Below are positions 6,792 to 10,395 of a DNA stretch of 10,395 bases, piece after piece. Under the pieces are notes generated by a model. It saw only the letters and a list, made by a program, of their open reading frames with translations, was not told the origin of the DNA and searched no databases. The stretch is from Promethearchaeota archaeon (GTDB lineage: Archaea; Asgardarchaeota; Lokiarchaeia; Sigyniarchaeales; SOKP01): NCBI GenBank assembly GCA_004524535.1, contig SDNY01000127.1, positions 1-10,395 of the forward strand, in the 5' to 3' direction. Position 1 is the stretch's first letter; every line of letters starts with the position of its first letter. Position numbers and translations under genes: made by a program.

Positions 6792-8000
6792 TTATTTTTT
6801 ATTTAAGTTGTTCTTTATTATTTCTAAAATAGTTGACTCAACGGGTGTACATCCTTTAATAAAAGTACCATTTTCTCGTTGTTCATAAGTGCAATTTCCA
6901 ATTAAGAAAGTCTCATCATAAATATCTGATTGTTTTATTCCTTTTCCTATTGCTAAATTTAATGGATTTTCAGGTGTAAAATGTTTGTCAATAAAATCTT
7001 TGTTATTTTTCAATAAATTGAATATTGTGGATAGGCATGCAGAGCAGGAATCAATGTCAATTAAATTCACATTTTTATATTTAATGCTTATTGAACTTGG
7101 AGGAGGCTCTAAAGGTCTTATAAATTCTTGAATATTTTCAGGAATTGTTAAAATATCTTCATGGCTCTTTGGTGCATTTAATATCATATCTGATATCAGT
7201 TTCAAATGAGGAACATCTTCTAAAGACCATTCTGGCTGAGTTAATGCAAGGGCAATGATATCTGCTGCAAGGTAATCGGTAGATGCTATTATTGTGTCTA
7301 ATTTCACAGGATTTCCCGAAGAAGGTCCCATCCCTTCTTGAGCATATGATGCGTCTATTACTATTAAGTCAGGATGAAATATGTGAGCAAGATCTGCGAT
7401 TGCAATATCTAATTCTTTAATTTTCCTTATCGAATCTTTCAATTGGCTTATTACTTCGGGAGCTTGAAGATGATGTAAAGTAACTTTTTTTCTTTTATAG
7501 ATTAACCCTTTTAAATTTTTAAAACTTAGAGAAGCCCCACAGTGCATATGCATTTTTAAGACGGGAATTGATATTATAGAATCAATATCATTCCAGTAAC
7601 CGGTAACCTTGATTTTCTTTAGAATTTTTCCATTTGGTATATCTAATTCGATGGGAGGTTTATCATCTAAATCAATAAATTGAATATCGTCATCGTTCAA
7701 TAGATTATTATAGCCGGATTGCTCAAATGCCTTTCTTGTATCAGTATTTATTATAGGAGAGTCACCAATTAAAAATCGTGCCTTAAATTTTTGTTTTAAG
7801 TAATTAAAGATAGCAATTACAACTTCAGGATTTGTATTTATTCCTAAATAAGGATCATCTTCTCTGCCAACATTTGGTTTTAGTAAAACATTTTTTCCAT
7901 TTAAATCAGGAAGTTTCAACTGATCTAGAGCTGAATTTACTGCTATTATAATATCATCATTCCGTGCTATTGAAACAATAGGTTTTTCTCTTTTTAACAT
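6792..8000 (-). CDS. DUF362-domain protein with a C-terminal cysteine-motif (putative Fe-S) domain
   Basis: VLLKPN, TNPEVV, IGDSP, SIPVLKMHMHCGASLSFKNLKG, GMGPSSG and STDYLAAD. C-terminal CSAC...IGNC...GCTP. Confidence 0.85.
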   Translation of the reverse strand: MLKREKPIVSIARNDDIIIAVNSALDQLKLPDLNGKNVLLKPNVGREDDPYLGINTNPEVVIAIFNYLKQKFKARFLIGDSPIINTDTRKAFEQSGYNNLLNDDDIQFIDLDDKPPIELDIPNGKILKKIKVTGYWNDIDSIISIPVLKMHMHCGASLSFKNLKGLIYKRKKVTLHHLQAPEVISQLKDSIRKIKELDIAIADLAHIFHPDLIVIDASYAQEGMGPSSGNPVKLDTIIASTDYLAADIIALALTQPEWSLEDVPHLKLISDMILNAPKSHEDILTIPENIQEFIRPLEPPPSSISIKYKNVNLIDIDSCSACLSTIFNLLKNNKDFIDKHFTPENPLNLAIGKGIKQSDIYDETFLIGNCTYEQRENGTFIKGCTPVESTILEIIKNNLNKK

Positions 8001-8857
8001 TATTTTAAACCGAGAAAATCAATAATTTTATTTTTCATTAATTTACTATTTGGAGTTTTCCCAGTCCACCATTCAAAGGCTAATACACCCTGATTGACTA
8101 ACATATCAAGACCACCGAGGGTTTTGCATCCTATTTCTTTCGCGTCCTTCATTAATTGTGTCTCTATAGGATTGTATACAACGTCAAATACGAAGAGATT
8201 ACTATGTAGTAGAGCTTTGGGAACGGGAGACATTTCAATTTTGGGGTACATCCCTATAGGGGTGCAATTAATGAGAATATGAGCTTTTTCAATTTCTTGC
8301 TTTAATACTTTTTTATTACTAATCTTTCCTTCTACGTTCGCACCAGTCTTTTCCCTCACTTCAGCTGCTAAAGTAATCGCCCGTTCCTTTTCAACATCTG
8401 TTAAAACAATTTTATCAACATTATCAGATAAAATAAATGAGATTGCTCTTGCCACACCTCCAGAACCTATTAAAATTATATTTTTACCAGATAATTCACA
8501 CCCCGCATCTATTAGCGATTTTTTAGCTCCTCCCGCATCTGTATTTGTAGCTTTCAAAATACCATCCTCATTTTTAATTGTATTGATGGCACCAATTTTT
8601 TCTACTATTGTATCAATCTCATCTAAATATTGGATAATTGCTTCTTTATGGGGTATTGTAACATTGATGCCTTTAATGTCTAAAGCTCTAAAAGCTTGTA
8701 CAGCATTTTCTAAATTGTCAGGATGGACGTCAAATGCAATATATACATAATCGAGCCCTAGATGTTGAAAATTTGCATTATGCATTATTGGAGAAAATGA
8801 GTGTTCTACGGGATGACCGATGAGACAAAAAACCTTTGTTTTCCCTGAATATGACAT
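8000..8857 (-). CDS. aroE: Shikimate dehydrogenase
   Basis: IGHPVEHSFSPIMHN, GINVTIPHK, GAINT, NTDAGG, GSGGVAR, NCTPIGM, DVVYNP and GLDMLVNQG. Confidence 0.95.
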   Translation of the reverse strand: MSYSGKTKVFCLIGHPVEHSFSPIMHNANFQHLGLDYVYIAFDVHPDNLENAVQAFRALDIKGINVTIPHKEAIIQYLDEIDTIVEKIGAINTIKNEDGILKATNTDAGGAKKSLIDAGCELSGKNIILIGSGGVARAISFILSDNVDKIVLTDVEKERAITLAAEVREKTGANVEGKISNKKVLKQEIEKAHILINCTPIGMYPKIEMSPVPKALLHSNLFVFDVVYNPIETQLMKDAKEIGCKTLGGLDMLVNQGVLAFEWWTGKTPNSKLMKNKIIDFLGLK

Positions 8858-8992: not shown

Positions 8993-10395
8993 TTATGGCT
9001 TGATTTTTGGTATCTCTAATATATGACCACATCTCGGGCAAATTTTATGCAATCGATATTTTTTCATACTACTGAAAAAGCTTGAACCAAGTATTCCTGC
9101 AGGCAATGTAAATAGTGCTACACCTCCAAATGCAAATAATACTAATAAAAAACGCCCCATGGTAGTGACGGGATATATATCTCCATACCCTACTGTGGTA
9201 TAAGTAATAATTCCCAACCACATAGCTTGAAAAATATTTCCAACTTTGCCAGGTTGGGCGGCACCTTCAACATAATAGAGAGCAGCCGAGCTAAATATAA
9301 GGTACAAAACACATATCAACATAGATGTAAAAAATATTTTTCTATTTTCTATAAAAATATCCCCTATTATATTAAATATATCAGTAAAATGACTAATTTT
9401 AAACACAACAATAAATCTTAACAATAGTATAAATTTTAATTCACCAGTGAATGCAAAAGCAGGAACTAGCATTGGTAAAAAGAGGATAATTATAAGTAAA
9501 TCGAGTATTGACAAAGGACGAGCTATAAATTTTAATCTTCCTTTTATGGGATGATGATATTTTGCTTCTTCAGAGGCAGTACAGGACCAAATTCTTAAGA
9601 TATATTCTAAACAAAAAATACTAAATGAGATATAGTAAAAAGGAATTAAAATAAAACTGAATTCTTGATATACCTGTGGATTTGATTCAAGTAGTACTGC
9701 AAATGCGTTAAGGGCGATTAATATAAAAAAGAAAAATGCAACAATTCTCGGTTTTAATTCTGTTGGATATTTATTTTCAAGGGCATTAAAAACAAAATGT
9801 TTTCTGCGTTGATTTGGTGTTAGCTTATCTAAATCAATAACAACTTCGAGGGATTTTGTTTCATCAATTAATGTTTTTTTTCTTGTTCTTCTTATATCTT
9901 TTAAAGACTTGCTTTCTTCAAATTCCACGTTACAATTTGGACAAAAATCATAATGTGGATATCTTTCTTGAGTTTCATCTATAAAACCACTGGCAATGAC
10001 ACTTGCAGGCAATAAAAAGATAGTTATACCAAGAAGCGATACAATTATTGCAATAATCTTACCCATGGGAGTAATAGGAATAAGATCTCCGAAACCAATC
10101 GTGAATAAAGTTATCCCTGCCCAATATAATGCGTTAAAGAACGTTCTAAATTTTTCCGGTTGAGCTTTATGTTCTGCAATATAAAGAAAAATTGCAGCTA
10201 CAAACATAATAACTAAAGATAAAATGAGTGTCATTAATAATTCTTCTCTTTTTCTTTTAATCACTACCCAGATAATCTCAAATGAAGTAAAGTATCTTTT
10301 TAATTTTAGGAGCACAAATAAGCGTAATAATTGTAACGCTTTAGCGAGAAAGATATTCTCGATTGAAAATAATATTACTGAGATATAAATTATAG
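8993..10395 (-). CDS. Two-repeat voltage-gated-type potassium channel (tandem ion-transport domains), 5'-truncated by the window edge
   Basis: The frame stays open past 10315 to the window end (IIYISVILFSIENIFLAKALQLLRLFVLLKLKRY, an S3-S4-like segment). Pore 1 filter TIGFGD at 10085-10102. A complete second S1-S6 repeat follows, with EYILRIW, ILDLL and filter TVGYGD at 9179-9196. A CxxC follows each repeat. Confidence 0.92.
   Translation of the reverse strand, partial: IIYISVILFSIENIFLAKALQLLRLFVLLKLKRYFTSFEIIWVVIKRKREELLMTLILSLVIMFVAAIFLYIAEHKAQPEKFRTFFNALYWAGITLFTIGFGDLIPITPMGKIIAIIVSLLGITIFLLPASVIASGFIDETQERYPHYDFCPNCNVEFEESKSLKDIRRTRKKTLIDETKSLEVVIDLDKLTPNQRRKHFVFNALENKYPTELKPRIVAFFFFILIALNAFAVLLESNPQVYQEFSFILIPFYYISFSIFCLEYILRIWSCTASEEAKYHHPIKGRLKFIARPLSILDLLIIILFLPMLVPAFAFTGELKFILLLRFIVVFKISHFTDIFNIIGDIFIENRKIFFTSMLICVLYLIFSSAALYYVEGAAQPGKVGNIFQAMWLGIITYTTVGYGDIYPVTTMGRFLLVLFAFGGVALFTLPAGILGSSFFSSMKKYRLHKICPRCGHILEIPKIKP

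Follow-up and report, generated by a model that had tools for sequence, protein, structure and literature searches.

To our knowledge, multi-repeat channels of the voltage-gated type (TPC, Cav, Nav and tandem Kv-like channels) are regarded as eukaryotic inventions, and the prokaryotic relatives that we know to serve as structural models all have just one 6TM unit per chain. Several other K+-type proteins resemble the channel described below in that each chain carries at least two K+-type P-loops, and hence need fewer chains per pore, namely K2P (2x2TM), TOK (6TM+2TM) and the prokaryotic TrkH/KtrB (four M1-P-M2 repeats per chain), but none of them has two complete S1-S4 sensor domains plus two pores. 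KCNQ/Kv7 channels possess an S6 hinge of the P-A-G type and lack one charge of the S4 register. For a further group, the prokaryotic 6TM Kv channels with a CPHCG tail, we know of no established name.

The eukaryotic tandem Kv-like channels consist of two Kv-like 6TM repeats per chain, which share about 30% identity or less and carry unequal S4 charge. The authors of that study, in which 302 sequences were used and the K2P and TOK layouts are also described, view them as the outcome of several independent events (PMC7576140). Two-pore channels (TPCs) are presented, in the excerpts available to us, as dimeric pseudo-tetramers with functionally unequal sensor domains, and the available part of PMC6259924 treats them as Na+/Ca2+ channels without a GYG filter.

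Here, we analyze a DNA stretch of 10,395 nt (the window) from a metagenome-assembled genome (MAG) of a Promethearchaeota archaeon. The best overall explanation for a gene at its end, which we consider probable, is a Kv-type 2x6TM K+ channel subunit that belongs to a small family known from Asgard archaea and originated by a single duplication and fusion, with the allele at hand being 5'-truncated. Two fused complete subunits of the voltage-gated type represent a layout that was otherwise found described only for eukaryotes in the literature searched, and full-text searches returned no description of a 2x6TM K+ channel from Asgard archaea or from any other prokaryote.

Two pore modules in one open reading frame

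The frame of the channel gene is uninterrupted and open at its 5' end according to an ORF scan. The window represents an entire contig (C82 of genome G000), whose end truncates the frame. The longest start-to-stop ORF inside this frame has 440 aa and starts with a GTG at 10315. The features of the locus are as follows (positions in the window):

8993..10393, minus strand: tandem K+ channel gene, open frame of 466 codons plus TAA, 5' side cut by the contig end
10247..10395, no strand: terminal 149 nt, shared without differences with the end of contig C150; here the assembly graph branches and the 5' truncation has its breakpoint
10367..10393, minus strand: remnant of repeat-1 S3 (IIYISVILF), aligned to P0007 and P0002; helix 2-8 in the model
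10292..10351, minus strand: repeat-1 S4 with four periodic K/R
9962..10249, minus strand: pore module 1 with S5, pore helix, filter and S6 (Pfam, AlphaFold2 model)
10085..10102, minus strand: selectivity filter 1, TIGFGD
9917..9952, minus strand: beta-hairpin knuckle 1, CPNC at 9932-9943, putatively from the C-terminal tail of a single-subunit ancestor
9818..9916, minus strand: inter-repeat linker, basic, 33 residues
9014..9817, minus strand: full repeat 2 with pre-S1 helix, S1-S6 and knuckle 2 (Pfam, subgroup profile, model)
9389..9757, minus strand: voltage-sensor-type domain of repeat 2, S1-S4 (Pfam, model)
9389..9445, minus strand: repeat-2 S4, charge-poor, with three periodic K/R and the last charge changed to His
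9053..9343, minus strand: pore module 2 with S5, pore helix, filter and S6 (Pfam, model)
9179..9196, minus strand: selectivity filter 2, TVGYGD
9014..9049, minus strand: beta-hairpin knuckle 2, CPRC at 9029-9040

The original prediction, made from the letters alone, had described two homologous pore modules in one unbroken ORF, a complete S1-S4 domain between them and an S4-like helix (FLAKALQLLRLFVLLKLKRY) 5' of the GTG. All three were recovered. Both filters were located, and the two repeats of the window protein matched each other with 29% identity over 138 aa (E = 9e-24). The S1-S4 domain is present between the pores, and the upstream helix is real and aligns with the repeat-1 S4 of full-length relatives. 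The Pfam profile Ion_trans (PF00520) matched the window protein in two stretches (118.2 bits, cut-off 25), the better of which extends over residues 217-441 (profile positions 3-235 of 241) and corresponds to repeat 2, and Ion_trans_2 also matched in two stretches (107.2 bits). Two pore modules and two hairpins were likewise predicted by AlphaFold2 (pLDDT 84.0, pTM 0.78).

A family of tandem channels in Asgard archaea

Full-length relatives with the same tandem architecture, about 560-590 aa long and 45-80% identical to the window protein, were found. A profile of single-6TM relatives matched 37 of 42 close relatives twice and nearly end to end, with both repeats covering profile positions ~3-265, and the other five relatives are fragments. 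Ion_trans and Ion_trans_2 were each detected twice in the window protein as well as in all eight relatives tested. Two filter motifs (pattern T-x-G-[YF]-G-[DE]) occur in 39 of the 42 relatives; the three that fall short comprise two C-terminal fragments and P0041, which has one pattern match. The AlphaFold2 model of the relative P0002 (580 aa; pLDDT 82.9, pTM 0.76) contains two full S1-S6 sets and two hairpins. Across the family, the linker between the repeats has a median length of 35 residues (range 18-67). Judged from sequence, the family is truly 2x6TM, and the layout and K+-type pore proposed originally for the window gene hold at the family level.

A named source exists for ten of the 42 close relatives (eight Promethearchaeota, one Hermodarchaeota and one Thorarchaeota), in agreement with the Asgard host that had been considered for this DNA. 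Wherever the source gives an organism name, the family is known only from Asgard archaea, a range that refers to the organism-named set, outside of which the deep-branching P0036, P0038, P0040, P0041 and P0122-P0129 are found. Within the phylum, the family is narrow and patchy. The fused form was detected in 17 of 399 genomes and, in one family, in 15 of 133, while searches of 401 genomes from each of two other archaeal phyla yielded none (E <= 1e-60). Database labels of the tandem proteins do not go beyond 'potassium channel family protein' or 'ion transporter', and a protein atlas search returned single-domain 'ion transporter' clusters only.

Origin of the two repeats

The original prediction attributed the two modules to an internal tandem duplication, and this is supported. 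In three trees, repeat 1 (R1) and repeat 2 (R2) each formed one side of a branch (support 94/99, 96/94 and 95/95, respectively), and the branching order inside R1 mirrors that inside R2, which indicates a single origin of the tandem family. The identity between R1 and R2 within the family is low (median 30.6%, range 25-38.5%, n = 44), and the split between single-subunit proteins and R1 plus R2 received 72% support.

In the trees, both repeats nest beside the CPHCG-tailed prokaryotic Kv channels, examples of which are P0052, P0076 ('Ion transport protein, Halothece sp. PCC 7418') and L066. Among the matches listed, these single subunits are widespread in bacteria and archaea, and they are 30-42% identical to each repeat. 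The resemblance includes an end-to-end profile match per repeat, a K+ filter, an LPAG-type S6 motif, a pre-S1 helix and a CxxC knuckle right after S6, whereas a chain of the single-subunit type contains just one repeat, with about 7 S4 charges compared to about 4 and about 2.6 in the two repeats of the tandem channels. A CxxC immediately follows S6 in 73 of 78 single-domain relatives, and conservation within the tandem family is at least 90% at C151/P152/C154 and C452/P453/C455. A CPxC knuckle that putatively stems from a 6TM Kv ancestor with a CPHCG tail has been retained in both repeats, which argues for the duplication of a whole subunit. We propose that a complete prokaryotic single-subunit Kv channel (pre-S1 helix, S1-S6 and CPHCG knuckle) gave rise to two copies joined head to tail, that this happened once, and that the two halves co-evolved afterwards.

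The eukaryotic tandem Kv-like channels (PMC7576140) are similar in having two Kv-like repeats with separate R1 and R2 clades, about 30% identity and unequal S4 charge, and they differ by their eukaryotic hosts and by the several independent origins assigned to them. We also considered a shared origin with the multi-repeat K+-type proteins P0124, P0128, P0135 and P0136, which are presumably eukaryotic judging by their composition. This was rejected. Their repeats form a clade of their own (support 87) apart from R1 and R2 (95 each), with the named sequences of PMC7576140 lying outside the tree; the four proteins are devoid of CPxC knuckles.

Alternative explanations for the fusion

The original prediction had named an assembly error as a result that would speak against it, and neighboring pairs of separate 6TM genes, from which assembly or gene calling could produce an erroneous fusion of two single-subunit genes, do occur, e.g., in Methanothrix (L025, L050). 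Nevertheless, we regard the probability of such an artefact as negligible. A stop codon between the repeats is absent from the window and from 16 other genomes of the phylum, in which stop-free tandem frames of 550-677 aa were found, and the identical fused layout is present in about 40 different proteins of independent assemblies from NCBI, JGI, ENA and Logan, on contigs of up to 1.28 Mb. The length of the linker is conserved across the family. Logan's separate assembly of the probable source run also contains a contig of 10,395 nt, with 0 differences in the first 149 nt, which were compared. A fusion of two paralogous genes that had diverged beforehand, in a two-gene operon that lost a stop codon, would replace the intragenic duplication and appears unlikely to us, yet it deserves far more weight than an artefact. 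The low identity between R1 and R2 and the weak support for the branch that separates them from single-subunit channels would fit this scenario, and a two-gene state exists in the Methanothrix pair. Against it, R1 and R2 are located together on one side of the sampled single-subunit proteins in the tree, and the Methanothrix genes are placed among the latter and not with R1 or R2. Moreover, a split gene of the R1 or R2 type was found neither among the best 120 of 958 matches nor among the 150 representatives listed. The tandem-length matches from Methanothrix were also examined as candidates for a pre-fusion stage and were rejected, being two separate genes that branch with single-subunit channels.

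The 2x6TM layout per chain and the Asgard host could also suggest that the gene is a homolog or forerunner of eukaryotic TPCs, with implications for how 4x6TM Cav/Nav channels could have arisen via Asgard ancestry, and the two sensor domains are unequal, as they are in TPCs according to the excerpts available. We consider this very improbable. Each of the 60 PDB sequence matches listed (of 157) is a K+ channel; KCNQ5 ranks first (2e-27), and TPC, Nav and Cav are absent from this list. The top 50 Foldseek matches are all Kv subunits that each cover one repeat. KCNQ/Kv7 channels, the closest solved relatives by sequence (among these 60) and by fold, align to one repeat with an rmsd of 3.3-4 Å over about 250 columns; they differ by having one repeat per chain, a calmodulin-binding C terminus and eukaryotic hosts. 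The filters are of the GYG/GFG K+ type, compared to the Na+- or Ca2+-selective TPCs of the available part of PMC6259924, and the position of both repeats beside CPHCG-tailed channels also speaks against a TPC ancestry. The confinement of the fused form to 17 of 399 genomes, almost all of one family, argues for a late, lineage-specific origin. Sequence and fold searches thus lead to Kv/KCNQ channels and not to TPCs, and they point to an independent parallel to TPCs, one of the two possibilities that the original prediction had raised; the other, a relevance to TPC or Cav/Nav ancestry, was not borne out. With TPC1-3, as far as the excerpts describe them, the tandem channel shares 2x6TM per chain, unequal sensors and a dimer that we infer here. 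TPC1-3 have a Na+/Ca2+ filter without GYG, and the resemblance is one of layout only.

Truncation of the dominant allele

The probable source run contains two genotypes that differ at the window end. In the dominant one, the DNA upstream of this end is unrelated and stands in place of S1-S3 of repeat 1, and the minor genotype carries these helices there. The paths into the window end have depths of 47.7 (unrelated DNA) versus 6.1, which add up to approximately the 53.3 of the window contig, all of them being means over whole Logan contigs from one run, probably the source, and hence tied to the assembly. The gene is 5'-truncated in the dominant genotype of this MAG. The location of repeat-1 S1-S2 outside of the window, as originally predicted, therefore holds true for the relatives and the minor genotype and fails for the dominant genotype with its unrelated upstream DNA.

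With S1-S3 of repeat 1, the promoter and the start lost, this gene copy might be a dead remnant that gives rise to no working channel, a reading to which we assign a substantial probability somewhat short of even. It is in line with the unrelated DNA on the dominant path. Repeat-1 S1-S3 was not found in the bin of the MAG (search at E <= 10), and the homology to P0007 ends within two residues of the breakpoint. The channel gene is also the sole Ion_trans gene in the bin, so that the missing part could not be supplied by another gene. On the other hand, the remaining 466 codons are free of stop codons and frameshifts and share 76-80% identity with intact relatives, an ATG in the same frame is provided by the unrelated upstream DNA 14 codons ahead of the first full codon of the window, and the truncated fragment was modeled with confidence. 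In addition, the pore modules of another 2x6TM channel can be functional without their sensor, as stated in the part of PMC5150636 that was available. The dominant allele may be a decaying gene, and we see roughly even chances for the shortened product to be still at work.

Proposed assembly and divergence of the sensors

For the intact Kv-type 2x6TM subunit, which is the explanation we favor, two chains would form a pseudo-tetramer in which the P-loops of R1 and R2 alternate around one K+-selective pore. The presence of two P-loops per chain makes the dimeric pseudo-tetramer a sound inference, and the T-x-G-[YF]-G-[DE] signature of both filters suggests K+ selectivity of the pore. Prediction of a dimer from two copies of the window protein, in which repeat 1 is without S1-S3, gave a score of 0.10 (mark 0.42), which counts neither for nor against binding. 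In the proposed assembly, the two CPxC knuckles would be located just below the two S6 helices of one chain and, more speculatively, might coordinate a metal together. Conduction of K+, like gating and the binding of a metal, is a presumed property of the channel.

From a mean of 6.75 K and R residues in S4 of single-subunit channels (n = 75), S4 charge has dropped to 4.04 in R1 and 2.62 in R2 (n = 47 each). The window protein has four periodic charges in S4-I and three charges plus His in S4-II. This His is invariant in the family, where repeat 2 retains two or three charges. S4 charge is graded within the tandem family, from 5-8 in deep-branching members to 2-4 in crown members. Given these charge-poor helices, the label 'voltage-gated' may not apply to the tandem channels. 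Any voltage dependence is probably weak and mostly carried by repeat 1, considering its approximately four charges in comparison to the two or three charges plus His of repeat 2.

A more far-reaching proposal, which we regard as rather doubtful, is that the family represents the first natural prokaryotic concatenated 6TM channel, with R1 as a weak voltage sensor, R2, given its invariant S4 His and its lost charges, as a sensor of another stimulus such as pH or a ligand, and the knuckles as a Cys4 metal/redox switch under the gate. The fusion into one chain would then leave the halves free to specialize. If true, the Cys4 switch would suit an anaerobic sediment archaeon, and the channel would offer a tractable prokaryotic model for the path from symmetric tetramers to asymmetric multi-repeat channels.

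Apart from this proposal, the Asgard 2x6TM K+ family shows that the first step, in which concatenation leads on to an asymmetric decay of the voltage sensors, is possible in prokaryotes, and its S4 charges preserve a graded series of this process. The genes are small and free of introns, and they could help to address the joint control of one pore by two sensors of unequal strength. The family may also inform about the role of the widespread, uncharacterized CPHCG tail of prokaryotic Kv channels. It is not informative about the descent of TPCs or of Cav/Nav channels.

Genomic surroundings

The ORFs of the window and of contig C150 have no counterparts beside the channel genes of three genomes of the same genus (G001, G004 and G007). 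Since the channel copies of these genomes are distant (about 48% identical to that of the window) and belong to another subclade, the neighborhood offers no functional clue. In the window, the channel gene is surrounded by housekeeping genes, i.e., those for shikimate dehydrogenase, a DUF362 protein, thymidylate kinase, an M28 peptidase, the large and small subunits of an aconitase-family enzyme and an HD protein.

Architecture of the channel gene

The window comprises one entire contig (G000:C82) and carries, at its right-hand end, one open frame with two homologous pore modules, a full S1-S4 between them and an S4-like helix ahead of the first pore. This description by the original prediction is correct throughout, as judged by Pfam, sequence coordinates and a predicted model. 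The parts, with boundaries taken from the coordinates and the secondary structure of the model (pLDDT 84.0, pTM 0.78), are:

8993-10393, minus strand: tandem K+ channel open frame, 466 codons, ending in TAA and running off the right-hand window end
N-terminus of the frame: S3 helix remnant of nine residues
First unit, after the S3 remnant: S4, S4-S5 linker, S5, pore helix, filter TIGFGD and S6
Directly after the first-unit S6: short beta hairpin with CPNC
Between the CPNC hairpin and the second unit: basic linker of 33 residues
Complete second unit: pre-S1 helix, S1-S6 and filter TVGYGD, then a second hairpin with CPRC

The longest start-to-stop ORF inside this frame has 440 aa and starts with GTG at 10315. 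Ion_trans (118.2 bits, cut-off 25) and Ion_trans_2 (107.2 bits) each match the window protein in two stretches, and residues 217-441 form a full six-helix unit (Ion_trans profile positions 3-235 of 241). The two units share 29% identity across 138 residues (E = 9e-24). No other Ion_trans gene occurs in the bin. Downstream of the channel gene lies a shikimate dehydrogenase gene (8000-8857), whose stop is overlapped by one base by the gene for a 402-aa DUF362 protein with a Cys-rich C-terminal part (6792-8000, minus strand); no link between the DUF362 protein and the channel was evident.

A family of tandem 2x6TM channels

A word-indexed search with the window protein returned 958 proteins at E <= 0.001. 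We analyzed the best 120 of these, the first 42 being two-filter proteins or their fragments, mostly of 548-605 aa and up to 795 aa where N-terminal extensions are present. A profile built from single-subunit matches of 255-330 aa fits 37 of the 42 twice and nearly end to end (profile positions ~3-265), which bears out the proposed tandem duplication and 2x6TM layout for the family; the remaining five are cut (P0001, which is the window's own protein, P0003, P0007, P0033 and P0042). Counting repeats with Pfam gave two Ion_trans and two Ion_trans_2 stretches in all eight relatives tested, as in the window protein, and the AlphaFold2 model of P0002 (580 aa, 78% identical) shows two full helix sets (pLDDT 82.9, pTM 0.76). 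An assembly or gene-calling artefact is excluded, since 16 more genomes from the window's phylum carry the fused frame uninterrupted (550-677 aa, no internal stops) and relatives with the same architecture are fused in NCBI, JGI, ENA and Logan assemblies.

Two relatives, P0016 and P0026, are extended at the N-terminus by roughly 65-120 residues, beginning with a zinc-finger-like C-x2-C ... H-x5-H motif; Pfam reported no domain in this part. The deep-branching 2x6TM members P0127 and P0129 are without the CxxC hairpin, hereafter the knuckle. GYG is absent from both filters of P0129, which has therefore probably lost K+ selectivity.

Host range

Organism names accompany ten of the 42 close relatives, P0007 (80% identical) among them: eight Promethearchaeota, one Hermodarchaeota and one Thorarchaeota. 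A pattern scan of the genome collection found single-ORF tandems in at least two Promethearchaeota records and at least one 'uncultured archaeon' record. Where an organism name is given, the fused form was found only in Asgard archaea. In genome counts by phylum, which are samples, it occurs in 17 of 399 genomes of the window's phylum; with the window's own genome left out, these comprise 15 of the 133 genomes in its family and 1 of 14 in a second; all other families had none. No fused form was found at E <= 1e-60 in 401 genomes of the phylum that holds Methanothrix or in 401 of the phylum that holds Nitrosopumilales; this threshold passes fused matches and not single subunits (weakest fused match in the window's phylum, 2.5e-90). 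So restricted and patchy a distribution favours a late, lineage-specific origin of the fused form and speaks against its having contributed to the ancestry of eukaryotic channels.

Within the order, a second family contributes a single match (G169:C11:47401-48750). Its 635-aa open frame aligns with P0002 over residues 122-572 alone, at 35% identity, and may be a divergent or differently built member of the tandem family.

Origin of the two repeats

For the tree of repeats with single-subunit Kv channels, proteins were split into first (R1) and second (R2) halves and joined with single-subunit relatives. Three unrooted trees were made by 'quick' IQ-TREE searches with SH-aLRT support only. In each, all first halves lie on one side of a branch and all second halves on one side of another, with supports for R1 and R2 of 94 and 99 (tree 1, 125 rows), 96 and 94 (tree 2, 106 rows, with seven added representatives from an exhaustive search) and 95 and 95 (tree 3, 75 rows). 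The internal branching orders of R1 and R2 mirror each other in all three. Because the single-subunit proteins fall on one side of a branch with a support of 72 in tree 2, R1 and R2 may, weakly, be each other's nearest kin among the sampled sequences.

The sequences point to one origin of the tandem family, from a prokaryotic Kv channel with a CPHCG tail. CxxC, mostly CPHCG, directly follows S6 in 73 of the 78 single-subunit relatives (P0043-P0120), some of which have a helical insert of 40-60 residues ahead of it; to our knowledge, no function has been described for this conserved tail. It appears that a whole subunit was copied, tail included, since the tail is kept in both knuckles of the tandem family (each at least 90% conserved) and a pre-S1 helix precedes each repeat. 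Within one protein, the repeats share a median identity of 30.6% (range 25.0-38.5, n = 44) and are joined by a linker with a median of 35 residues (range 18-67).

Voltage sensors and predicted mechanism

Judging by their S4 charges, the voltage sensors of the two repeats appear to have decayed unequally.

S4 charge in single subunits and in the two repeats (K+R counted over 22 S4 columns of an alignment to the single-subunit profile)
Sequences; n; mean K+R; K/R share at the seven periodic positions
Single subunits; 75; 6.75; 0.93, 0.99, 0.89, 0.99, 0.96, 1.0, 0.99
First halves (R1); 47; 4.04; 0.13, 0.21, 0.68, 0.89, 0.06, 0.98, 0.96
Second halves (R2); 47; 2.62; 0.13, 0.40, 0.19, 0.74, 0.11, 0.91, 0.04

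At the seventh (last) periodic position, R2 has a His that hardly varies. The window protein has four periodic charges in its first S4, and three plus the His in its second; more charges are kept in the deep-branching tandems P0040, P0126 and P0129. With charge-poor, unequal S4 helices, voltage dependence is predicted to be weak and to rest chiefly on repeat 1.

A K+ pore needs four P-loops, and the chains of K2P channels and eukaryotic two-pore channels (TPC) pair. By analogy with established K+ channels, tandem chains with two P-loops would have to pair as well, forming a pseudo-tetramer with R1 and R2 alternating round the pore. With a canonical filter in each half, the channel is predicted to be K+-selective. 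Within one chain, each S6 helix is immediately followed by a knuckle; that the two knuckles jointly offer four cysteines to a metal is a speculation we consider rather unlikely.

Relation to known channels

A sequence search of the PDB gave 157 distinct chains at E <= 1e-5, the best 60 of which are all K+ channels, with KCNQ5 first (2e-27), followed by other KCNQ, Kv2.1, MlotiK1, Kv1/Shaker and Kv4. The 50 best Foldseek matches are all Kv subunits, each covering ~250 columns, or one repeat. No TPC, Nav or Cav chain occurs among the best 60 of 157 PDB matches or the 50 best Foldseek matches. We therefore reject a TPC relative, and the possible bearing on TPC evolution raised by the original prediction falls, also in view of the narrow host range.

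Eukaryotic tandem Kv-like channels, as described in the accessible part of PMC7576140, have first and second repeats in separate clades, repeat identities of 30% or less and S4 charge that is unequal between repeats. The Asgard family shares separate repeat clades, low identity and unequal S4 charge with them, and that part of the source mentions no prokaryotic tandem. Our literature search, in one paper library, found no description of an Asgard or other prokaryotic tandem 2x6TM K+ channel. The finding is real; the concatenated Kv-like channel is a known kind, and its prokaryotic version is new.

The exhaustive representative search also yielded long multi-repeat proteins of eukaryote-like composition: P0124 (1493 aa), P0136 (1748 aa), P0128 and P0135. 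They have four 6TM repeats (two to three in fragments), and all filters are K+-type. Their repeats form a clade apart from R1 and R2 (tree 3) and are without knuckles, so a common origin was rejected; the two architectures are independent events. Repeats of the P0124 group are mutually 71-77% identical, which points to recent internal duplications. P0134, P0140, P0146 and P0152 combine two, three or four Ion_trans (sensor) stretches with a single pore module, P0140 having four, one pore and a cyclic-nucleotide-binding domain.

In two Methanothrix MAGs (L025:2791-4473 and L050:2995-4681), a pair of distinct 6TM channel genes lies side by side. The first (266 aa) has the non-canonical filter TVGDNF instead of TVGYGD and is without CxxC; the second (277-286 aa) has TVGYGD and CPHC. 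Both fall among the single-subunit channels in the tree, so their products may combine into a heteromeric channel with an origin separate from that of the Asgard fusion.

Allelic state of the window copy

The assembly consists of graph unitigs, whose commonest end overlap is exactly 149 nt (150 directed overlaps; next lengths 8 each). The last 149 nt of the window's right end are common to one other contig end alone, that of C150. There, the channel frame opens a mere 25 codons ahead of the overlap and includes a second in-frame ATG, 14 codons upstream of the first complete codon in the window. An unrelated 758-aa ORF ends 14 nt before the overlap; it is one of three ORFs (402, 282 and 758 aa) on C150 (L018, 1-5391), none with a Pfam match. 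Homology to P0007 ends at most two residues from the overlap. Neither a search at E <= 10 nor tblastn found repeat-1 S1-S3 in the bin, whose completeness by markers is 99%.

Logan contigs were aligned to the C150 end. In run X1, the probable source, which contains all sampled words, two alternative paths lead into the window contig (depth 53.3): C150 (47.7) and a 490-nt contig (6.1). These two depths, which sum to 53.8, are averaged over whole contigs of a single run and are tied to the assembly. The last 30 letters of the 490-nt contig before the junction encode, in the channel frame, the ten-residue S3 motif FSGLIDLFSA (FIGLVDLFSA in P0007, PLGLIDLFSA in P0002). A 1763-nt contig (depth 10.3) of run X2, which comes from another study, fits the 149 nt with 4 differences; it has the same loose end and extends 526 bases further upstream. 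We take this to mean that a minor genotype and a further sample have an intact 2x6TM gene, and that S1-S3 of repeat 1 are replaced in the dominant genotype of the source sample, hence in the MAG. The window copy is probably a truncated allele. The expectation that S1-S2 of repeat 1 lie outside the window thus agrees with the minor genotype, where the S3 motif is found upstream, but not with the dominant C150 path, which leads into unrelated DNA.

Whether the shortened product of this truncated allele still works is evenly balanced in our view: 466 intact codons, the ATG available on C150 and the confident predicted model speak for function, but sensor helices are missing and the native start is lost. 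At the junction (L002:1467-1499), C150 carries a 13-nt tandem repeat and an inverted repeat with a 9-bp stem, which stop a single base short of the 149 nt in common and could represent a terminator or a recombination footprint.
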